The notes under the pieces were generated by a model, which was not told the origin of the DNA, did not search any database, and saw only the letters and a list, made by a program, of their open reading frames with translations. A DNA stretch of 44,932 nucleotides, taken from the sequence record OR565852. One strand, 5' to 3'. The position numbers were made by a program, and so were the translations under genes. Positions 5,533 through 44,932 of this stretch are shown in pieces; position 1 is the first letter of the stretch; the number at the start of each line of letters is the position of its first letter. The stretch is from Citrobacter phage phiNP.

Positions 5533-6113
5533 GTCACCTGCCCCGCGGTTTTCTCACTGGTAATACTGCTGCTGCCACCAGCGACGCCTTTCGTCACATG
5601 GTTGTGACCGTTATATGCGTCGCGTAACTCTTTCAGCGTGCGCGGGTTGCTCTCGCAGTTATCGACAACATCCCCGGTAACCAGCAGCTTCGGCGTGATC
5701 AGCTTTACCTGCTCTGTCGCTGTGACCGTCAGGTTTCTGGCGTTATTCACCGTCACATCCTGTCCGTTCGCCTCAACAGTGATCCCTTTCTCCGTCATCA
5801 GGATATAAAGCCCCCACTGGTTATAAAGGACCGTTTCTCCCGGGTTCAGCCCGGTATGTCGGTGCCCCTGATGGTTGGAGCCAATGATCACCGGGCTGGA
5901 GCGATCGCCCCCCAGGAAAGCCAGTACCACATCAGAGCCCGCAGGCAGCGCGGAAGAAAAGCCAAACTCCGTTATCCGGCGGGCCGTAGCCACCTCCAGC
6001 GGTGTCTGGTACTGCACGCTCTGAACTGTGCCGCCGTCGTTCTGACCCGTCACACGACCAATACCCAACATCCCGGCGACGCGGGTCGCCAGGTGTCTGA
6101 AAAGTTGATTCAT
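5529..6113 (-). CDS. Baseplate assembly protein V / central spike (Mu gp45-like)
   Basis: Gene order and an OB-fold-spike-like sequence. Confidence 0.75.
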   Translation of the reverse strand: MNQLFRHLATRVAGMLGIGRVTGQNDGGTVQSVQYQTPLEVATARRITEFGFSSALPAGSDVVLAFLGGDRSSPVIIGSNHQGHRHTGLNPGETVLYNQWGLYILMTEKGITVEANGQDVTVNNARNLTVTATEQVKLITPKLLVTGDVVDNCESNPRTLKELRDAYNGHNHVTKGVAGGSSSITSEKTAGQVT

Positions 6114-7189
6114 GGATTAAGCCCCGGTATCTGTTGGTAGAAAGCGTAAGGCTGGACGGTAAACGCCTCCGGTGGCATCAGGGACAGCCTGGCGTGCGTT
6201 CCGCCTGAATCCCTGATAAACGTCACCTCGGACAGCAACATTTCCCGATCGGTGACTTTCAGCGCCGGAATATTGACCGGGATCAGCGTATTGGGCTCCC
6301 ACAATTTCCCGGACTTATCCCGCCAGCTGTCAATCGTCACATCCAGTTGCCGGGAACGGCCGTAACGCCGGTTCATCTCCCAGTCGATACACTGCTGCGC
6401 CTGCTGTGACGCCATCAGCGTGCTCTCAACAATCACAATGCGTTTCCGGTAGCGCATTCTGGCCGCCTCCGGATCGCGTGCGGTCGCCAGGGTCACCGAA
6501 TCGTAGGCAGTATCCGGCGCCAGCCCGCTAACCGGGGACAGGCTCATGGATACCCCGACATAATCAGAAAACCGCTCAGCCATTGAGGTTCGGAAATATG
6601 CCTGCTCGATGTTTTCCCCCTGGGCGACACCACTGGCCGCCTTCCGGGTTCCCACCCTGGTCAGCAGCAGATTGCCGTCAGGCTGGTCGTAATACAGCAG
6701 CGCAGACCAGCGGCTGACACGTTCGATGATCTCCTGCGGGGATTCACCCCAGTTGAGTGTGAACTGGGGAACAGCAACCAGATCACTGACATCTGACGAT
6801 ACGGATATGCCGTAATACGAGGCCAGACGTGAAGCGATATCCAGCGCGTTGCCACCGTTAATCACGTTATTCGGCCACTCGGCGGAGCAGTCCACCAGGT
6901 CCTGGCACTTTCCGCGCCCCGTTGCTCTGACTTCATGGCGACTCCGGCTTATCGACGGCTCCCAGTCATCGACATAGCCGGTGATCACCAGGTCGTTACC
7001 GATCCGGATTTCGCAGGACTCCCCCTCCCTGACCAGCTGTTCATCCTGGCTACCGGGGAAATAGTCCATCAGCCCTAGGTCAAAATCAGACGGGAAACGC
7101 TCGATTGCCCGGGTGACCCGCACGGAATCCCAGCCCTCTATTCTTCTGCCTCCCACGGTGAGGGAAACGAGATCGCGGGTTTCAGTCAT
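6110..7189 (-). CDS. Baseplate hub / late control D-like protein (Mu gp44)
   Basis: Gene order; 359 aa, typical for gpD/P family members. Confidence 0.75.
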   Translation of the reverse strand: MTETRDLVSLTVGGRRIEGWDSVRVTRAIERFPSDFDLGLMDYFPGSQDEQLVREGESCEIRIGNDLVITGYVDDWEPSISRSRHEVRATGRGKCQDLVDCSAEWPNNVINGGNALDIASRLASYYGISVSSDVSDLVAVPQFTLNWGESPQEIIERVSRWSALLYYDQPDGNLLLTRVGTRKAASGVAQGENIEQAYFRTSMAERFSDYVGVSMSLSPVSGLAPDTAYDSVTLATARDPEAARMRYRKRIVIVESTLMASQQAQQCIDWEMNRRYGRSRQLDVTIDSWRDKSGKLWEPNTLIPVNIPALKVTDREMLLSEVTFIRDSGGTHARLSLMPPEAFTVQPYAFYQQIPGLNP

Positions 7190-8589
7190 TGCCGTAACAC
7201 CTTCATTTTCACAGGCATAAATGCCGGGTGGGGAACATCCGCTTCCTGCACCAGTTCATCAGCGCGCCCGGCATCCTGATACAACCGGTTTGCCAGCGTC
7301 AGCGCCGGAAGTGGCCGCGCGGTGCTGATCTCCATCAGCTCGCTCAGGTTCGGAGAAATATCGCTCATCCTGTCGATAAATGAGGATCGAAGACTGAGCA
7401 GCGCCCTGTAGAGATCATCATCGCCGCGGTCGCCCACCACCACCAGCGCTACATCCAGCTGATCGGATACCCGCTGCGTCAGTCCTTCGGCTTCGTCACG
7501 GCTGGTCGGATTGGACTCCGCCGCCGCCGCAGTCATCGCCCCGGAGCACAGCACAATGATCAGGGTGTTGACAGAGGCCGCGATTTTTCGCGTGGCCTCT
7601 GACTGCTGGTATTCGGTACTGGTGGCACCGGCCAGAGACTCCAGCAGCGTAACGCGCTCATCAATACCGCCGACGCTGTTCAGTATCAGGTTCACCAGAT
7701 CCGCCGTCAGCTGCATGATATCTTCGGGCGCCGTGGCGCTGTTGAGCCGTTCGACAGCATCTGAAATATTCTGGCGATCCATGACCGCCTGAGCCGTTAC
7801 CTGTTCGACCAGCGCCTGATAATCATCAGTGTCATCGGCCTGGTGAGTACCCGTTGCCCCGGAAGAACTCCCACCTGCCGTCCCTTTGTTGTAGCGTCCA
7901 TAGCGGGTATTCCCGAACGTGGAATTCAGGACGTTACTGACACTGGTCGCTTCGCTGATCGTGCTGTCTACCATCCGGGTCCAGAAGGCGACCGTTCCCC
8001 TGATGGTGTTGATCCCCTGAGTCACCCCCCGGAGTTCACTTTTGATCCGCGCCAGAACGCTGGAAACGGTGGTGGTAACCAGTTTCAGATAATTTGTCAC
8101 GACGTTCACACCGGCGACCTTGCTGCCGGTAATGGCGAACACCTTCAGACCTGATTCAATGGCTGTCAGGGTAAATTCGAACACCCGCCCGGCCTCCGCC
8201 GTTCCGGCAATTCTCAGGCCACCATCCGGAATGGCAACCGTCATTTCCCCCAGCGTCGGGTGTACCAGTGTCCCCGGCCCCTTTTCCTCACAGGCATTAA
8301 TCAGCGCCTGGCGCTGGGTAACGGCATCACCGCCACCGTAAACCTGGCTGTCCTCGACCAGAAAGCCCCTGATGGTTATCCGGCGAACACCCCGCCCCAG
8401 ATCTTCAATCCAGGCGGTATCCCGGTACGGGTATTCATGGACAGCCTGGCGACGTCCATGGACCCCTTCTTCAATCACGACGGCAAAAGGAACGCCCCGG
8501 AAGCTGGACGGCCGTAGCTTATCCTGCCAGCGCTCACCGCCTGTGCCGCCCATCAGAGCGGATATTGCATTCTGGATAATTGCCATCAT
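7186..8589 (-). CDS. DNA circulation protein (Mu gp43-like)
   Basis: N-terminal WQDKLRPSSFRGVPFAV...HEYPYRD motif typical of the DNA-circulation N-terminal domain. Confidence 0.75.
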   Translation of the reverse strand: MMAIIQNAISALMGGTGGERWQDKLRPSSFRGVPFAVVIEEGVHGRRQAVHEYPYRDTAWIEDLGRGVRRITIRGFLVEDSQVYGGGDAVTQRQALINACEEKGPGTLVHPTLGEMTVAIPDGGLRIAGTAEAGRVFEFTLTAIESGLKVFAITGSKVAGVNVVTNYLKLVTTTVSSVLARIKSELRGVTQGINTIRGTVAFWTRMVDSTISEATSVSNVLNSTFGNTRYGRYNKGTAGGSSSGATGTHQADDTDDYQALVEQVTAQAVMDRQNISDAVERLNSATAPEDIMQLTADLVNLILNSVGGIDERVTLLESLAGATSTEYQQSEATRKIAASVNTLIIVLCSGAMTAAAAESNPTSRDEAEGLTQRVSDQLDVALVVVGDRGDDDLYRALLSLRSSFIDRMSDISPNLSELMEISTARPLPALTLANRLYQDAGRADELVQEADVPHPAFMPVKMKVLRQ

Positions 8590-38867: not shown

Positions 38868-39190
38868 ACGAACAAACTACAGTTAAACACCTCCATTTCT
38901 ACGGTGCCAGCGATGATCTGCTGGAATGCGAAGGCGCGATCCGCGAGGAGATTGGTTGCTATAACTCTCCAGGCATCTATCACCTCAAATCCGCCGAGGG
39001 TGAAATGCAGGTTGTCGGTTATTACCTCGACTCCGGGCTGTGGAGCATCGGAATCAGCCAGGTCGCCGAAGATACGCCGCTGCCAGCGTGGCCCGTCACT
39101 TACGCCATGCATGAGCGTGGTTACAGTGTCCAGCTCACCATCACTGTGCCGGACGACGCCATTCTGGTTTTGTCAGAGGAAGATGAATGA
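38864..39190 (+). CDS. Hypothetical protein
   Basis: Translationally coupled on both sides. Confidence 0.55.
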   Translation: MNEQTTVKHLHFYGASDDLLECEGAIREEIGCYNSPGIYHLKSAEGEMQVVGYYLDSGLWSIGISQVAEDTPLPAWPVTYAMHERGYSVQLTITVPDDAILVLSEEDE

Positions 39191-39918
39191 GCATTACCCT
39201 GCATAACGCCGACTGCTTCGATGTTTTTCCGACGATTGCCAGCGGTTCCGTAGACATGGTGTGTGCGGATATTCCCTACGGTACCACGCAGTGCTGCTGG
39301 GATTCGGTGCTTGACCTCGAGGTGATGTGGCATGAACTGTACCGCATCGCCAAGCCGTCAGCGGCAATTGTCCTGTTTTCGGCTCAACCGTTTACCGCGG
39401 TGCTGGTCGGCAGCAACCTGGCGGACTGGCGATCCGAGTGGATTTGGGAAAAAGGCAACGCCACCGGCTTCCTTAATGCCAAAAAACAGCCGTTGCGTGC
39501 CCATGAAAATATAGAGGTGTTTTATCGTCGCCAGCCGACATACAACCCGCAGTTTACCCATGGTCATGCGCGCAGAACATCGAAGCGCAAAACCGTCAAT
39601 TCGGAGTGCTACGGCAAAGCGCTGACGCTGACTAAGTATGACTCAACCAGCCGGTACCCGCGCGATGTGCAGTTTTTCTCGAGTGACAAGCAAACCGGTA
39701 ATTTCCATCCCACCCAGAAGCCGCTGGCGCTGGTTCAGTACCTGATCGAGACCTACAGCAACCCCGGCGATACGGTGCTGGATTTCACAATGGGAAGCGG
39801 TACCGCAGGAGTCGCCTGCCTGCGTGTCGGGCGCTGCTTTATTGGCATTGAGAAAGACACCTCAATATTTCAGGTCGCGCGTCATCGTATAGGGACTAAG
39901 CAGGAGCATGCAGCATGA
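39187..39918 (+). CDS. DNA methyltransferase, beta-class N6A/N4C with DIPY catalytic motif
   Basis: ADIPYG (motif IV), HPTQKP and FTMGSGT (motif I). Confidence 0.85.
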   Translation: MSITLHNADCFDVFPTIASGSVDMVCADIPYGTTQCCWDSVLDLEVMWHELYRIAKPSAAIVLFSAQPFTAVLVGSNLADWRSEWIWEKGNATGFLNAKKQPLRAHENIEVFYRRQPTYNPQFTHGHARRTSKRKTVNSECYGKALTLTKYDSTSRYPRDVQFFSSDKQTGNFHPTQKPLALVQYLIETYSNPGDTVLDFTMGSGTAGVACLRVGRCFIGIEKDTSIFQVARHRIGTKQEHAA

Positions 39919-40112
39919 AGATCCGCTGTTTTTTCGGGCTTCATAAATGGGTGCTGTTCAAGAAAGAGCTTCACCCATATCAATCTCTTAACGGACTGCA
40001 GCCAACTATTATTTTCCACTATGGGTGTAATGGCTGCGGCAAGACCAGAACAGAGACTCGCGAAGAGGGTTACTGGCATTCTTTTAAACCATCAGATTTG
40101 GAGCACATGTAA
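39915..40112 (+). CDS. Small Cys-containing hypothetical protein
   Basis: GLHKW...CNGCGK; coupled to its neighbours. Confidence 0.5.
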   Translation: MKIRCFFGLHKWVLFKKELHPYQSLNGLQPTIIFHYGCNGCGKTRTETREEGYWHSFKPSDLEHM

Positions 40113-40679
40113 TGAACCACCTTATGATCGACCTAGAAACGATGGGTAATAAGCCTGCTGCGCCAATTGTCGCGATCGGCGCTGTGTTTTTCGACCCGAA
40201 AAGCGGTGAGCTGGGCGCCGAGTTCTATGTGGCCGTCAACCTCGCCAGCGCCATGGATCAGGGTGCTACCCCTGACGGTGACACGATCCTGTGGTGGCTG
40301 AAGCAATCAGCGGAAGCTCGCGCTGCTATTTGTACCGACGACACTAAGAACATCGCCGAAGCGCTCTCCGAGCTTAGGTCATTTATTAGCCGTAACTCTG
40401 ACAAACCGCGTTATCTGAAAGTCTGGGGCAATGGCGCCAATTTCGACAACGTTATTTTGCGTTCAGCCTATGAACGCGCCGGCCAAACCTGCCCGTGGCA
40501 ATTCTGGAACGACAGCGACGTGCAGCACCATGGTGCTGCTCGGCAAACAGCTTGGTTTCGATCCAAAGCGCGATATGCCATTTGATGGTGTAGCCCACAA
40601 CGCACTGGCCGATGCCCACCACCAGGTGAAATATGTATCGGCAATCTGGCAGCGACTATTGCCCGCCAGCGCCGAATAA
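40112..40679 (+). pseudogene. DnaQ-like 3'-5' exonuclease interrupted by a 1-nt frameshift
   Basis: ORF 40112-40585 carries MIDLETMG...GNGANFD. The last motif (HNALADA) sits in ORF 40431-40679, in another frame. The frames switch at about 40520-40530. Confidence 0.7.
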
Positions 40680-40709: not shown

Positions 40710-40928
40710 ATGGAGAAATTTATGCTGAGCCTCGATTGTGTTCCCATCTCAACTTATTGCAAAGAGACAGGCGAAACTCCTGATGCGATCAACAAGCGCG
40801 TACAGCGCGGTGTGTGGCGTGAAGGGGTTCAGGTGCTGAAAGTCGAAGGCGTTAAGGAGAGATGGATAGATCTTAGTGAGGTTGCAAAATGGGCCAGACA
40901 GAATCGCCTAAACTCCCGCGCGGCGTAA
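40710..40928 (+). CDS. xis: Excisionase-like protein (DUF1233-type)
   Basis: Small basic wHTH-like protein whose 3' end overlaps the int start. Confidence 0.65.
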   Translation: MEKFMLSLDCVPISTYCKETGETPDAINKRVQRGVWREGVQVLKVEGVKERWIDLSEVAKWARQNRLNSRAA

Positions 40929-42055
40929 CCATCAGGAAACATCGCAACGGTCAAACCATCAATATTACTTTTACATATAAAGGGGTGAAATGCCGTGAGC
41001 CTCTTTCTAATCTGGACGTAACCCCTAAAAATATCAAATACGCCGAGCGCACACTCGGCGAAATCCATAACAAGATCGAAAGGGGAACGTTTGTTTACGC
41101 GGAATACTTTCCCCGTTCTACCCGATTAAAAATTTTCGGAAACGCTGCCGCAGGAAAAACGGTGAAGATGTATCTGGATGAGTATCTGGTGATCTGCGAA
41201 ACGAGGAAGCTTTCCCCTTCGACAATAGGCGGGTACAAGAAATGCCGAAGCGCATTGTCATCACTTCATATTTATCCTGCAAGTGAGTTGACGCCGGCTG
41301 CATTGAAGACATGGATCCAGAACCAGAAAACGACATTGAAGACCATCCGAAACCAGTTGTCATTCCTGCGTTCTGCATTGGATGAAGCAGTGACAGATGG
41401 TGTGCTTCAGATTAACCCTGTATCTCTGGTAACAGCCTCACGATACCAAAGTGATAAATCAGAGGCAGAAAGTAGTTATGTGGTTGATCCGCTATCACCA
41501 GCAGAAGTTGATGCTTTGCTCTCTGCTACTGGCAATAAGCAGTGGGAGAATCTTTTCCGGTTCGCGATACAAACAGGGCTGCGTAGTTCCGAATTGTGTG
41601 CTCTTCGTTGGCGTGATATCGACTTTGTAGGGAAGACTGCCCATATCCAGAGCGCCAGTGTTGTTGGTGTGATCAAAGGGACCAAGACAAAAGCAGGTAC
41701 CCGTAAAGTTGAACTCACAGATGAAGCAATGTCGGCTCTGATAAATCAGAAACCGTTCACGTTCATGAAGGGCGCTACTGTCTTTGAGGATCCAAAGACC
41801 AATAAGCCGTGGGCAAGTGCTGATGCAATTAGAAAAAAGGCATGGGTGCCGACATTGCGAAAGGCTGGTATTCGGTACAGAAACCCATATCAGACTAGAC
41901 ATACATTCGCCACATGCCATATCAGCCGGGGAACAAACTTGTTCTGGCTTGCGACTCAAATGGGACATAAAGGCCCAGAGATGCTTTTCCGTCACTACGG
42001 CTCATATCTGAAGGAATATGATGGACAAACAAGCCTGAAGAAGATAAAAATATAA
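40889..42055 (+). CDS. int: Tyrosine integrase with N-terminal arm-binding domain
   Basis: LPRGVTIRKHRNGQTINITFTYKG arm domain. Catalytic LRSSELCALRWRDI, TRHTFAT and GHKGPEMLFRHYGSY motifs. Confidence 0.9.
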   Translation: MGQTESPKLPRGVTIRKHRNGQTINITFTYKGVKCREPLSNLDVTPKNIKYAERTLGEIHNKIERGTFVYAEYFPRSTRLKIFGNAAAGKTVKMYLDEYLVICETRKLSPSTIGGYKKCRSALSSLHIYPASELTPAALKTWIQNQKTTLKTIRNQLSFLRSALDEAVTDGVLQINPVSLVTASRYQSDKSEAESSYVVDPLSPAEVDALLSATGNKQWENLFRFAIQTGLRSSELCALRWRDIDFVGKTAHIQSASVVGVIKGTKTKAGTRKVELTDEAMSALINQKPFTFMKGATVFEDPKTNKPWASADAIRKKAWVPTLRKAGIRYRNPYQTRHTFATCHISRGTNLFWLATQMGHKGPEMLFRHYGSYLKEYDGQTSLKKIKI

Positions 42056-42112
42056 TCCATGTCTGAATTATTGGCCGCAATTTGTGGCCATTTCATGGAA
42101 CAAGGTACAAAC

Positions 42113-43846
42113 ATGGCAAATCCAATAACCAAACTAAAAAAAATAAACGTTGTAAAATTTCGAGGACTAAAAAATATAAATATAGAATTTGGTTCGCGAC
42201 TAACTGTTATTTGTGGTAAAAACGGCACATCTAAATCGACAATTCTTGGTATTATCGCCCAAATTTTTAGTTTTACAAAAGATCTGTCTAAGAACCCCGA
42301 GGTTGATTTAACACAATATAAGACATTAACTAATGGCACCTTCAAGTCAGCTTTCAGTGAACATTTTAGACTTTCAGAACAATTTGATACTGCAGGTTCA
42401 ATGGAAGTCAGGATTAGTGTTTATGATGGTGCATCTAACAAACATCTTGAAAAGCTAACATTGGGTCTATACAGCTCCAGTGACAGGGATAAATCAAGGC
42501 CAATAGTCAGGGGCAATGATTCCATACCGGGGAAAAACCAAAGTAGAAACGTCACTCATCCAGTTATTTTTCTAAGCTTAGCAAGACTTCTCCCTATTAC
42601 TCTACGGACTGATTACTCAACAAGGGATGTTCAGTATATCAATGAAAACGCAGATGATATAAGAATAATGAGCAATCAACTCTTACTTAAGAATAATGGG
42701 TGCTCAGTAACAGCCACGAAAGGGACGATCGATTCAATGGTCGTACACGGCGATAATTACGACCATCAATCAGTCTCTGTTGGTGAGGATAATGTTGGAC
42801 AATTAATTCAAGCAATATTTTCCTTTAAAAGGCTAAAAGAACTTTATGACGATTATCATGGAGGTATTTTATTAATTGATGAAGCGGACGCAGGTCTTTT
42901 CCCTGCTGCTCAGTTAGAATTAATTGACATTCTAGCTAAAGCAGCTAAAAAATATGACTTGCAAATAATCATGACTTCTCACTCACCATTAATAATAGAA
43001 GATATTTTCAATCGTTCCAAACAAGATGCCAACGGATTTAAAACAATATATCTGACAGATACTTATGGTGATATTAAAACAAAAGACAATCTATCATGGG
43101 CCGATATCAATGCTGATTTGCATGTTGAAACTGTAAAAATAAATGATGAGATTAGCCTTCCAAAAGCCAACGTATATTTTGAAGATAAAGAAGGCTTCGA
43201 TTTTTTCAAACAATTGATAATTGATAGAAGAATAAACAGAATATTGAATCCATTAGGAAACATAAATATTAGTTGTACTGCTATCCTAGATTTAATGGCT
43301 AGAAAAGTCCCTGAGTTTACTAACAAAAGCCTAGTTGTCTTAGACGGTGATGTTGCTCTCGATAACAGTGACAATGCTAAAAAAGCGAAAAAAGAGAGAA
43401 GCTTATGCTTGCTTCCAGGCATTCTTCCCCCAGATCAAATGATTTTTGAATTCTTATATAACTTACCTCCAGACGATATATATTGGAACAATAAAAATAG
43501 ATTTACAAAAGCAGTATTTATGAAAATAACAAAAGACATAATTACAACATTAAAAATAAGTAACTATCCTATTGATTTACTAAATTCTATAGAGAATTAT
43601 AAAAAATCAAACAAAAACCATGGCGGAGTGGTTAGAAAACTATTTAAAGATTTTGTCCATACGCCTGAGTTCCTAGCACAAGTAAAAGGGCGAGTTAAAG
43701 ATAATCCTTATCGATATTGGGTCGAGAAACACCCCGTAGAATCCGATAATTTCAAGCATGAATTAATCAAAAACCTTAAAATTATTATGACAAATGGACA
43801 TGGCGTTGACTCTGCTACCATCACTTCGTATCTGTCTGGCAACTAA
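42113..43846 (+). CDS. OLD-family-like protein: N-terminal ABC/AAA_15-type ATPase plus C-terminal Toprim-like domain
   Basis: Walker A GKNGTSKST, signature-like SVGEDNVGQ, Walker B ILLIDEADAGLFP, H-loop TSHSP, then YFEDKEG ... VVLDGDVA (Glu + DxD). The start could instead be 42059 or 42095. Confidence 0.7.
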   Translation: MANPITKLKKINVVKFRGLKNINIEFGSRLTVICGKNGTSKSTILGIIAQIFSFTKDLSKNPEVDLTQYKTLTNGTFKSAFSEHFRLSEQFDTAGSMEVRISVYDGASNKHLEKLTLGLYSSSDRDKSRPIVRGNDSIPGKNQSRNVTHPVIFLSLARLLPITLRTDYSTRDVQYINENADDIRIMSNQLLLKNNGCSVTATKGTIDSMVVHGDNYDHQSVSVGEDNVGQLIQAIFSFKRLKELYDDYHGGILLIDEADAGLFPAAQLELIDILAKAAKKYDLQIIMTSHSPLIIEDIFNRSKQDANGFKTIYLTDTYGDIKTKDNLSWADINADLHVETVKINDEISLPKANVYFEDKEGFDFFKQLIIDRRINRILNPLGNINISCTAILDLMARKVPEFTNKSLVVLDGDVALDNSDNAKKAKKERSLCLLPGILPPDQMIFEFLYNLPPDDIYWNNKNRFTKAVFMKITKDIITTLKISNYPIDLLNSIENYKKSNKNHGGVVRKLFKDFVHTPEFLAQVKGRVKDNPYRYWVEKHPVESDNFKHELIKNLKIIMTNGHGVDSATITSYLSGN

Positions 43847-43854
43847 TTGATTGA

Positions 43855-43891
43855 AAAGGGCTTTATATGATGGCCATAAAGCCCTTTTTTT
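43855..43891 (+). terminator. Intrinsic terminator between the ATPase and methylase genes
   Basis: Perfect 12-bp stem AAAGGGCTTTAT / ATAAAGCCCTTT followed by a T run. Confidence 0.8.
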
Positions 43892-43925
43892 GATATACTT
43901 TAGACTTGACATTTAGAGGTATCAT

Positions 43926-44807
43926 ATGCGTTTTAACACCCCACTTCGTTATCCTGGCGGCAAAGGCAAGCTTTCTAATTTCATGCTTCGGATTATTGAA
44001 GATAATAAGCTTTCGCCTATACATTATGCAGAGCCATATGCTGGGGGTGCTGGTTTAGCGCTGAAGCTGTTACACTTAAATGTAGCTGAAAAAATCATTC
44101 TTAATGATATTAATATCTCAGTTTATGCTTTTTGGCACAGTGTATTAAATAATGCAGATCATTTATGTGCTTTAATTGAGGATACTGAAGTCACAATGGA
44201 TGAGTGGTTCAAACAGAAAGAAATAATTAATCATCCAAGAGACCATGATATGCTAACAATTGGTTTTTCTACCTTTTTTCTTAATAGAACAAATCGTTCT
44301 GGAATATTAAAAGGCGGTGTAATTGGTGGTAAAAATCAAGAAGGGCAATGGAAACTTGATGCTCGTTATAACAAGAGCGATTTAATTTCTCGGATTCAGA
44401 AAATATCAAAAAACCGTGAAAGAATAGATTTGTATAACATGGATGCAATTGATTTCATAAAAAAAATAGTTGTTCAATTGCCTAAAAAATCATTAACATA
44501 TTTAGATCCGCCATATTATATAAAAGGTAAGGGATTATATATCAATCATTATGAACATAGTGACCATGTTAATGTTGCAAAAGTAGTGCAGCATGATATT
44601 AAAACACCGTGGATTGTTTCTTACGATAACACTCCTGAGATCCAAGGTATGTATAAGGCATCATCATTAGTGTATGGAATAAACTACAGTGCTCAAGATC
44701 GATATAAGGGCTCAGAAGTGATGTTCTTCAGTAAACGATTGAAAGTCTTTAAAACCGATGATCCAACTAAGGTAAAAGCACCTACCAATAAAAATGCTAT
44801 GAGCTAG
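43926..44807 (+). CDS. D12-class (alpha) N6-adenine DNA methyltransferase, Dam-like
   Basis: PLRYPGGK, EPYAGGAG (FxGxG) and LDPPYY motifs in alpha-class order. Confidence 0.9.
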   Translation: MRFNTPLRYPGGKGKLSNFMLRIIEDNKLSPIHYAEPYAGGAGLALKLLHLNVAEKIILNDINISVYAFWHSVLNNADHLCALIEDTEVTMDEWFKQKEIINHPRDHDMLTIGFSTFFLNRTNRSGILKGGVIGGKNQEGQWKLDARYNKSDLISRIQKISKNRERIDLYNMDAIDFIKKIVVQLPKKSLTYLDPPYYIKGKGLYINHYEHSDHVNVAKVVQHDIKTPWIVSYDNTPEIQGMYKASSLVYGINYSAQDRYKGSEVMFFSKRLKVFKTDDPTKVKAPTNKNAMS

Positions 44808-44907
44808 ACGACTACCCACGGACAGAAAAAGCGCCGTAAAAGAGCCGCAGCAAAGTCACTTTTTAATAAATCATTTTTAATCAAAAAGATAATAAGTTTC
44901 GGACGCT

Positions 44908-44932
44908 GGTTCAACTCCCGCCAGCTCCACCA
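44908..44932 (+). repeat. attR core: second copy of the 25-nt ssrA 3' end
   Basis: Exact repeat of 1-25. The ssrA-like sequence extends leftward to 44897 (TTTCGGACGCT) with one mismatch to the E. coli sequence at 44907. Confidence 0.9.

Follow-up and report, generated by a model that had tools for sequence, protein, structure and literature searches.

An ATPase-methylase gene pair of Citrobacter phage phiNP as a probable, hitherto undescribed phage-defence system of the restriction-modification type with kinship to PD-lambda-5

The window, by which we mean the whole stretch of 44,932 nucleotides analysed here (OR565852), is the entire Citrobacter rodentium prophage phiNP. It carries two low-GC genes, which lie between int and attR and encode an ABC ATPase and a D12-class methylase; all stranded features described below lie on the plus strand. 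In the composition profile the G+C content is 0.53-0.56 upstream and 0.29-0.40 from approximately position 42000 onwards. A first-pass annotation of this DNA had described an AT-rich, horizontally acquired two-gene cargo in the int-att slot, and the two reading frames, the drop in G+C and their position bear this out. The attR site (44908-44932, no strand assigned) is a 25-bp core that matches the 3' end of ssrA exactly and has its other copy at 1-25; read as its reverse complement, it is the published phiNP attP (PMC6456863). ARAGORN found no tmRNA gene in the whole window, just this 25-bp end of ssrA. The phage is able to lysogenise E. coli K-12. In the phiNP literature the cargo genes are entered merely as 'ATPase' (PMC6456863). 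A literature search with the protein accessions and descriptive phrases returned no paper on this module. The work of Krishnan et al. in 2020 reportedly concerns ABC ATPase conflict systems and may already mention ATPase-methylase pairings.

The first gene (gene 1; 42113-43846) is predicted to encode the effector, a 577-amino-acid protein in which an ABC ATPase domain is followed by an acidic, alpha/beta-helical C-terminal domain. The frame given for it in the list of open reading frames is 42059-43846 (595 amino acids), but the true start is most likely at 42113 (Met19 of that frame), because the homologues are 577 amino acids long, an AAGG ribosome-binding site lies at 42102-42105, and a conserved TGGCCA falls within the supposed first 18 codons. 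The protein is 100% identical to 'AAA family ATPase [Citrobacter phage phiNP]' and matches phrog_3940 with 638 bits, a family that PHROGs labels 'unknown function'. The ATPase domain (42113-43087; residues 1-325) contains a Walker A motif (GKNGTSKS), a signature-like motif (SVSVGED), a Walker B motif (LLIDE) and an H-loop (TSHSP), all of which are invariant in the family, and it matches Pfam AAA_15 (1.5e-16) and AAA_21 (2e-12). When aligned with the P2 Old family using hhalign, it gave a probability of 93.4% (E 2.5e-7). Sequence comparison thus supports an ATPase domain of the OLD/AAA_15 type, as the first-pass annotation had held, and each motif quoted there for the two proteins was located (GKNGTSKST, ILLIDEADAGLFP, TSHSP, VYFEDKEG, VVLDGDVA, EPYAGGAG and DPPYY). 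PtuA, AriA, AriAB and GajA were among the PADLOC matches of this part of the protein, the best reaching no more than 71 bits and covering the ATPase domain only; no PADLOC model covers gene 1 at full length.

In the AlphaFold2 model of gene 1 (mean pLDDT 88) the C-terminal part is composed of a Toprim-like core (43160-43432) and an all-helical extension (43433-43843), the latter with invariant PPDQ, R508 and N531-P532. The core is predicted to be a four-stranded alpha/beta fold (pLDDT 89.7) in which invariant E357-D358 (43181-43186) ends strand 1 and invariant D411/D413 (43343-43351) ends strand 3; set against the predicted strands, this Glu and DxD arrangement has the topology of Toprim. E357 and D411/D413 are invariant across 33 close and 46 distant homologues. 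An OLD-like Toprim protein had been proposed; of this, the OLD-type ATPase domain and the Glu...DxD arrangement stand, whereas residues 325-595 of the 595-amino-acid frame matched nothing in Pfam or PADLOC at E <= 10, including the AriB and DUF4435 profiles and PF20469 (OLD-like_TOPRIM), which relatives of P2 Old do match. The alignment of the C-terminal domain to the P2 Old family in hhalign had a probability of 0.1%, the ATPase domains alone being linked; its profile matched no PDB sequence, Foldseek returned no significant match in the PDB, and the structural similarity to Toprim is weak. When the C-terminal profile was run against 1.84 billion representative proteins, 407 relatives were recovered; more distant ones of approximately 500 amino acids match just the first ~150 positions of the profile. 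All 46 distant full-length relatives that were scanned have the ABC ATPase architecture and a C-terminus without Pfam coverage, and they therefore provide no transitive link to Toprim. The string VAVDGKG, which had been quoted as the DxD motif of P2 Old, is present in that protein, but the family-invariant acidic pair is D453/D455. We consider the Toprim-like C-terminal region of gene 1, a presumed metal-binding domain, the likely nuclease.

The second gene (gene 2; 43926-44807) encodes a 293-amino-acid alpha-class D12 DNA methyltransferase, the predicted self-marking component. It matches Pfam MethyltransfD12 (PF02086) at 1.1e-17, with 65 bits against a cut-off of 22, and motif I (EPYAGGAG) and motif IV (DPPY) are intact and family-invariant, so the enzyme is the intact alpha-class methylase that it had been taken for. 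To call it Dam-like, however, was an overstatement, since it scores 50.5 bits on NCBIfam TIGR00571 (dam), under the cut-off of 114.85, and its nearest solved relative is an N4-cytosine enzyme: the sole PDB match at E < 0.01 is 7M6B, the GGCC N4-cytosine (m4C) methylase M.CbeI. In PADLOC it matches PD-Lambda-5_B over its full length (2.8e-123, 408.8 bits) and also MTase_II (6.6e-109).

Between the two genes lies a terminator-like hairpin (43853-43892) with a 14-pair stem, formed by 43853-43866 and 43876-43889, a 9-nt loop and then a run of T; the folding energy of the intergenic stretch in RNAfold is -23.9 kcal/mol. The terminator proposed earlier (12 bp, 43855-43891) is thus real, with a longer stem, and our terminator scan missed it solely because its loop limit was 8 nt. 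The hairpin has a counterpart in three related loci (L001, L087 and L088), but most loci from outside the enterobacteria, with genes that abut or overlap, lack it. The methylase is preceded by a promoter of its own (43871-43899), composed of TGGCCA as the -35 box (43871-43876), a 17-nt spacer and a TG-extended TATACT -10 box (43894-43899), and by a GAGG ribosome-binding site (43916-43919). A separate promoter for the methylase, in line with the partly independent expression that had been suggested for this locus, is thus borne out and generalises to other loci. Wherever the genes are set apart by an intergenic region, a terminator-like hairpin stands ahead of the methylase, which would be an odd layout for a restriction-modification (R-M) system unless the methylase promoter is strong.

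The two genes might alternatively be independent, a stand-alone class 1 OLD/PARIS-like abortive-infection gene and an orphan anti-restriction methylase that are neighbours by chance in a moron slot; the hairpin with its T run and the separate promoter favour this, as does the term 'orphan' that REBASE-based papers apply to related methylases. The distribution of the genes makes it very improbable indeed. Among 80 loci for which members of the gene 1 family served as seeds, 78 have a homologue of gene 2, and in the remaining two the sequence ends within 113 bp of gene 1, which gives co-occurrence in 78/78 assessable loci, across Gamma-, Beta-, Alpha- and Deltaproteobacteria, Mycobacterium, Bacteroidota, Listeria and Acidobacteria. 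In most of these loci the stop and start codons of the pair overlap or lie 2-20 nt apart, so that translational coupling is usual, and the two proteins co-evolve: their pairwise identities are correlated (Mantel r 0.76), to a degree reached by 0 of 999 permutations. In two loci (L002 and L079) both genes look degraded together. The first-pass annotation had asked whether the families co-occur and had offered both a linked, R-M-like reading and an independent one; co-occurrence, coupling and co-evolution strongly favour the former. There is no third conserved gene at the loci of the gene 1 family. The pair is intact in 85 of 5,426 complete E. coli genomes, at 85-87% nucleotide identity, and the contexts of the module are prophage moron slots, an ICE, and positions beside type III R-M genes (14-18 loci). 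The P. aeruginosa genes PA1939 (OLD) and PA2735 (methylase) were considered as a parallel pair and set aside, being unlinked and irrelevant.

The sequence TGGCCA recurs in the control regions of the module. In the whole cargo it occurs twice, against 0.26 expected, both times just upstream of a gene start. TGGCCA-N16-18-TAnnnT lies upstream of the methylase in 29 of 33 distinct regions, the spacers being non-conserved; in L001, a close relative from E. coli, the -35 hexamer is TGTCCA. Upstream of gene 1, a promoter-like site (42022-42051; TGGACA-N18-AAAAAT) lies inside the 3' end of int; it comes from the consensus scan alone and is weak as evidence because such sites are not above shuffled expectation in this region. 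A TGGCCG-N7-TGGCCA element (42072-42090, no strand assigned), 28 nt upstream of the ATG at 42113, is a candidate operator or site of methylation; L001, L087 and L088 keep it at an equal distance, and close relatives have it as a perfect inverted repeat (TGGCCAC-N5-GTGGCCA). Overall, TGGCCA precedes gene 1 at just 3 of 71 genomic loci, and this part of any regulatory scheme is therefore confined to the phiNP-like clade.

TGGCCA is the specificity of BalI/MscI, here built into the module's own promoters, and the classical endonucleases that cut it are small type IIP enzymes. Some R-M systems, for example CfrBI, carry their own recognition site in their promoters. The phiNP module would be CfrBI-like in that its putative recognition palindrome overlaps the -35 box of the methylase promoter, so that methylation could feed back on expression. 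TGGCCA might, on the other hand, be conserved merely as a -35 box or as an operator for a protein. Two characterised enzymes are relevant to specificity: MT2 of A. baumannii A118, expressed alone, produces m4C:TGGCCA (PMC10287943), and a type II-alpha enzyme of Shewanella algae (E1N14_009720) also modifies TGGCCA (PMC8340859). These enzymes and the REBASE predictions, often phage-encoded, resemble gene 2 in class (alpha), size and the annotation 'DNA adenine methylase', the respects in which they were likened to it. The TGGCCA type II-alpha methylases have been reported as partnerless ('orphan'), whereas in the module described here a conserved ATPase is always adjacent. We consider TGGCCA, and not GATC, the likely target of gene 2.

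The full-length match to PD-Lambda-5_B relates the module to a validated two-gene defence system. PD-lambda-5, from E. coli ECOR7 (Vassallo et al., 2022), protects against nearly all phages tested, and its cloning needed a host lacking the mrr region (PMC9519451). The two systems share an organisation of two genes, with the effector upstream and the D12 methylase downstream, and a location in prophage hot spots. At a genuine PD-lambda-5 locus (L085) the B protein scores 404.1 bits on PD-Lambda-5_B and its partner 558 bits on PD-Lambda-5_A; gene 2 has 51% amino-acid identity to the B protein of a genuine locus and belongs to the same family. The effectors differ. That of PD-lambda-5 is a ParB-like A protein of approximately 470-500 amino acids, whereas phiNP has an ABC ATPase joined to a Toprim-like domain; genuine PD-Lambda-5_A proteins score 248-558 bits, while PD-Lambda-5_A models are absent among the 25 best PADLOC matches of gene 1, and BLASTP of gene 1 against the PD-lambda-5 A protein showed no similarity. 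The promoters differ also, the TGGCCA site being common in viral loci with ATPase partners (16/21, against a background of 3.6%) and rare with ParB-like partners (2/18). Within this one methylase clade the partner is now an ATPase, now a ParB-like protein, and in some cases both kinds are seen at a single prophage slot. As a methylase of the PD-Lambda-5_B family is paired here with an ATPase unrelated to the ParB-like effector, we regard the module as an effector-swapped relative of PD-lambda-5. The view that the pairing was not a named system thus needs qualification: its methylase belongs to the B family of a named system, but its partner is a different protein.

Gene 1 has in common with the OLD family (class 1 P2 Old, class 2 Gabija GajA and the retron Eco8 effector) a C-terminal invariant Glu and DxD, but the partners in that family are a UvrD helicase or a retron, whereas gene 1 has an obligate methylase and is never stand-alone. 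Fused forms of PARIS, like gene 1, unite an ABC ATPase and a Toprim-type effector in one polypeptide; PARIS (AriA and the DUF4435 Toprim protein AriB), however, functions without a methylase. In an alternative reading, the methylase would mark self while the ATPase/Toprim-like protein causes abortive infection, with no cutting of invading DNA. The trigger would be unmethylated DNA or phage inhibition of methylation, through SAM depletion or DNA mimics, and the outcome the destruction of a host target, for example tRNA as with PARIS AriB, so that the cell is killed or arrested. In its favour, PtuA, AriA and GajA, the best PADLOC matches of the ATPase, are sensors of abortive or hybrid systems. 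Against it, gene 1 matches no AriB or DUF4435 profile, and a methylase that is obligatory, with TGGCCA in the control regions of the module itself, fits self/non-self marking at the level of DNA. We believe this reading to be unlikely.

We propose instead, with a probability of about 0.55, that the two genes are a single R-M-like, lysogenic-conversion defence module of phiNP, related to PD-lambda-5 but with the effector replaced by an ATPase-nuclease. In this model the methylase would mark the DNA of the cell and prophage at a short palindrome, most probably TGGCCA. Its ATP-driven partner, of the OLD/AAA_15 kind and with a C-terminal Toprim-like domain as the likely nuclease, would act on meeting unmarked DNA, by direct cutting or, less likely, by abortive infection. 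The methylase would be on first in a naive host and throttled once the TGGCCA sites are modified. As the methylase promoter has TGGCCA for its -35 box and further sites of this kind precede gene 1, the expression of both genes is probably tuned by how far the element's own DNA is methylated. Of this proposal, the comparisons show the linkage of the genes, their operon structure, their families and the layout of the promoters, whereas nuclease activity, discrimination by methylation, the site recognised, the regulation and protection itself are inferred.

The same self-regulatory sites suggest epigenetic control, and the pair could be an addiction or epigenetic module in which phage resistance is incidental. 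It would then serve mainly to maintain the prophage or ICE through post-segregational killing, or the ATPase would be an accessory that aids the methylase in DNA scanning or gene regulation. The module is always on mobile elements, and its strict linkage to the methylase is compatible with addiction too. However, this methylase clade supplies the B component of a system that was selected directly for phage defence, type III R-M genes adjoin the module in those 14-18 loci, and an invariant Glu and DxD speak for catalysis and against a passive accessory role; we think such a module decidedly improbable, and favour the R-M-like defence module.

The phiNP pair might even be the first recognised member of a widespread class of ATP-dependent R-M systems, in which the endonuclease unites an OLD-type ABC ATPase and a highly divergent Toprim-like domain, while the cognate alpha-class methylase, so far an 'orphan' TGGCCA enzyme in methylome studies, controls the system by methylating its own -35 box and serves as an exchangeable hub, a proposal that we make tentatively and at somewhat short of even odds. 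The hub would be one methylase serving unrelated effectors, ATPase-Toprim-like here and ParB-like in PD-lambda-5. Current detectors would not name the ATPase-methylase pair, although it is present in those E. coli genomes and in many phyla. As phiNP lysogenises E. coli K-12, all predictions can be tested in a standard host, and the promoter with TGGCCA as its -35 box is a directly testable case of epigenetic self-regulation. If the proposal is true, an ABC ATPase with a Toprim-like domain would be an added type of effector among the readers of DNA methylation, and the existence of such partners would explain why many phage and prophage methylases seem 'orphan' in methylome surveys. Furthermore, the methylase family would prove to be a platform on which at least two unrelated effectors can be exchanged, and would offer a natural handle on the mechanism of PD-lambda-5-type systems.

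The DNA is exactly one complete phiNP prophage of Citrobacter rodentium, since it both begins and ends with the 25-bp attP/ssrA core (1-25 and 44908-44932) published for phiNP (PMC6456863). ARAGORN found no tmRNA gene in the window, because only the 3' end of ssrA is present. Beyond the integrase gene (40889-42055; Pfam Arm-DNA-bind_2 and Phage_integrase), G+C falls from about 0.53-0.56 to 0.29-0.40, as the first-pass annotation had noted, and each motif quoted there was found. This AT-rich cargo holds two open reading frames on the same strand, an ABC ATPase gene (gene 1; 42059-43846) and a methylase gene (gene 2; 43926-44807). The product of gene 1 matches 'AAA family ATPase [Citrobacter phage phiNP]' with 100% identity. 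Its true start is most likely Met19, at position 42113, since homologues are 577 aa long, an AAGG ribosome-binding site sits ahead of this ATG, and a conserved non-coding element falls inside what had been taken for the first 18 codons. A second methylase, of another class, lies among early phage genes in DNA of normal G+C (39187-39918, + strand; Pfam N6_N4_Mtase, 5e-27) and is probably an orphan phage enzyme with no relation to the cargo pair; a 157-aa reading frame at 40112-40585 (+ strand) opens with MNHLMIDLETMG, a sequence similar to motif one of DnaQ-like 3'-5' exonucleases.

The first-pass annotation had left open whether the cargo genes are linked or independent, and had made the question turn on the co-occurrence of their families. 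A degenerate-pattern scan for gene 1 relatives, in which each species was represented by one genome, yielded 80 loci at 42-94% identity in Proteobacteria, Mycobacterium, Bacteroidota, Listeria and Acidobacteria. Given that a gene 2 homologue is present in 78 of these and that the other two reach a contig end within 113 bp, that the methylase lies immediately 3' of the ATPase on the same strand in about 70, that the reading frames of most of those overlap or are 2-20 nt apart, and that the two proteins show correlated matrices of pairwise identity (Mantel r 0.76, reached by 0 of 999 permutations), we consider it very improbable that the two genes are independent. The comparisons instead establish what is, to judge from sequence, an obligate, co-evolving and co-transcribed pair. 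No third gene is conserved beside it across the gene 1 loci. Its next commonest neighbours are type III R-M genes, present less than 6 kb away at 14-18 loci (L018 plus a further 13-17 in genomes). They encode Mod-like 587-aa and Res-like 969-aa proteins, so named from sequence only; because of this proximity, we place the module in predicted defence islands. The pair is carried by 85 of 5,426 complete E. coli genomes, in the int-att slot as in phiNP, in an ICE, or at a site beside icd. In L002 (Symbiopectobacterium) and L079 (Listeria rocourtiae), the alignment ends at about residue 400-425 of gene 1 and 160-180 of gene 2, and both genes appear to have decayed jointly. Six modules (L052, L054, L055, L056, L073 and L081; about 6001-8525 or equivalent), hosted by Comamonadaceae, Cupriavidus, Nitrosomonas, Methylobacillus, Melaminivora and an unclassified proteobacterium, agree exactly in their match statistics and in the sequence of a 75-nt junction, which points to a single mobile element having spread them horizontally very recently.

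Gene 2 had been read as an intact alpha-class D12 methyltransferase, and so it is: the protein scores 65 bits against the Pfam D12 model (cut-off 22) and keeps PLRYPGGK, EPYAGGAG and DPPY, which are invariant across its family. The term 'Dam-like' does not hold, as gene 2 is no Dam orthologue; it reaches 50.5 bits against NCBIfam dam, below the cut-off of 114.85, and the only solved structure at E < 0.01 is 7M6B, of M.CbeI, described in the accompanying paper as an alpha-class N4-cytosine methylase. The decisive match is to the PADLOC model PD-Lambda-5_B (2.8e-123, 408.8 bits, full length), which places gene 2 in the family of B proteins from a defence system that has been validated. PD-lambda-5 comprises two genes, 'ParB/HEPN, methyltransferase', found by functional selection in E. 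coli; it could be cloned only in a host from which the mrr region had been deleted, and its authors interpret it as 'RM+Abi' in compact form (PMC9519451). That the phiNP pair acts by an abortive-infection variant seems to us unlikely. In a genuine PD-lambda-5 locus in a P2 hot spot (L085; A protein 558 bits, B protein 404 bits), the B protein is 51% identical to gene 2, whereas the A protein is unrelated to gene 1.

The methylase behaves as a hub for exchangeable effectors. A methylase-seeded search of IMG/VR viral contigs gave at least 569 matches; among 62 close viral loci with usable upstream sequence, the partner was an ABC ATPase in 21, the ParB-like PD-lambda-5 A protein in 18, both in one, and unclear or incomplete in 22. 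Some of these ATPases are just 25-30% identical to gene 1. A looser count without the adjacency filter gave about 28 ParB-like loci and two with both partners, L097 (3788-7186) and L099 (1870-5825), where a ParB-like A homologue and an ABC ATPase flank one methylase gene; the enzyme may work with both effectors, or the loci may be recombination intermediates. In A. baumannii prophages (L178-L186 versus L177 and L187-L189), two alternative cassettes lie directly downstream of a cI-like repressor, one encoding a 479-aa protein with no Pfam matches, the methylase and a 418-aa protein, the other a 604-614-aa ABC ATPase and the methylase, which looks like effector swapping at a single position. The pair also has relatives in Vibrio phage ValB1MD-2 and Streptococcus prophages.

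The N-terminal part of gene 1 (residues 1-325) is an ABC ATPase matching Pfam AAA_15 and AAA_21, and 33 homologues all keep its Walker A, signature, Walker B and H-loop residues. The top PADLOC matches of the protein, PtuA, AriA and GajA, are each made through the ATPase part alone, and PHROGs assigns the whole protein to phrog_3940, 'unknown function'. The earlier description of gene 1 as an OLD-like Toprim protein stands in part. Profile-profile alignment (hhalign) to the P2 Old family gave a probability of 93.4% (E 2.5e-7) up to residue 296, in keeping with an OLD-type ATPase, and the Glu and DxD positions (E357-D358 and D411/D413) never vary, either among close homologues or in 46 more remote ones about 500 aa long. 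These 46 were scanned out of 407 relatives found among 1.84 billion representative proteins, and all share the architecture of gene 1, with an unannotated C-terminus. For the C-terminal domain itself, Pfam, PADLOC and PDB-sequence searches gave zero matching profiles, hhalign gave no match to the Old family, and no Foldseek hit fell below E = 0.27; PF20469, present in P2 Old relatives, is absent from the gene 1 family. Modelled alone (pLDDT 89.7), the domain is predicted to have a strand-helix core with the Glu at the end of the first strand and the DxD at the end of the third, as in Toprim. In our description, gene 1 joins an OLD-type ATPase to an acidic domain, divergent but Toprim-like, and a helical extension, and has a putative nuclease activity. 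By its motifs, the pair joins an ABC ATPase with intact catalytic residues and a conserved acidic C-terminal domain to an intact methylase.

Two TGGCCA sites occur in the AT-rich cargo against 0.26 expected, at 42085 (28 nt 5' of the gene 1 ATG) and 43871 (55 nt 5' of the gene 2 ATG), and TGGCCA is the sole palindromic hexamer common to both upstream regions. At gene 2 it stands as the -35 of a promoter-like element, followed after 17 nt by a TG-extended TATACT. In the full set of retrieved loci, TGGCCA stands 40-75 nt 5' of the methylase start in 33 distinct upstream regions; in 29 of them a TAnnnT hexamer follows 16-18 nt (usually 17) later, and the spacers show no sequence relation. The taxa in which the methylase promoter is built on TGGCCA include Enterobacterales, Acinetobacter, Pseudomonas and Betaproteobacteria, along with many viral contigs. 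The canonical -35 box is TTGACA, and since exactly TGGCCA is kept, a second constraint on the site is suggested. Among viral loci, TGGCCA lies upstream of the methylase in 16 of 21 with an ATPase partner and 2 of 18 with a ParB-like partner, against 3.6% of random 100-nt windows. Close relatives of phiNP carry a perfect inverted repeat, TGGCCAC-N5-GTGGCCA, ahead of gene 1, limited to the phiNP clade. In E. coli Ec-RL2-1X, the closest E. coli relative (L001, 9785-9871), the methylase -35 is TGTCCA, not TGGCCA, and the two TGGCCA sites ahead of gene 1 are intact; in the genuine PD-lambda-5 locus L085, a palindrome containing TGGACA occupies the place of the methylase -35 hexamer.

The same hexamer recurs in measured methylomes. 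MT2, a 'DNA adenine methylase' specific to strain A118 of A. baumannii and without a recognisable restriction partner, yields m4C at TGGCCA if it is expressed by itself (PMC10287943), and a type II-alpha enzyme of Shewanella algae leaves the same mark (PMC8340859). An 'orphan' alpha enzyme of Chania resembles more than 30 REBASE entries with predicted TGGCCA recognition (PMC5005818), and in Photorhabdus TGGCCA is fully modified, a mark not tied to an enzyme (PMC6092372). A. baumannii prophages carry the ATPase-methylase pair with TGGCCA in the promoter. M.CbeI, the enzyme of solved structure closest to gene 2, modifies GGCC, the four central bases of TGGCCA. From this convergence we infer, rather than demonstrate, that TGGCCA is the target of the gene 2 family. 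An addiction or epigenetic role for the pair is, in our view, less probable still than abortive infection.

We rate the pair as restriction-modification-like and related to PD-lambda-5, with an OLD-type ATPase as effector, and put the probability of a restriction-modification-like system at about 0.55. The methylase would mark TGGCCA on resident DNA, and the ATPase-Toprim-like protein would engage DNA using ATP and, where the mark is absent, cut or signal. In a naive host the unmethylated promoter would switch the methylase on, and modification of the -35 box would adjust its level; in the enterobacterial clade, an intergenic hairpin and T run may uncouple the transcripts of the two genes. We found no name for the ATPase-methylase pair in papers, PADLOC models or PHROG annotation, and such pairings might be mentioned in a survey, published in 2020, of conflict systems with ABC ATPases. 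The logic of the system is familiar; what is new and testable is its effector, the behaviour of the methylase as a hub, and the TGGCCA promoter.
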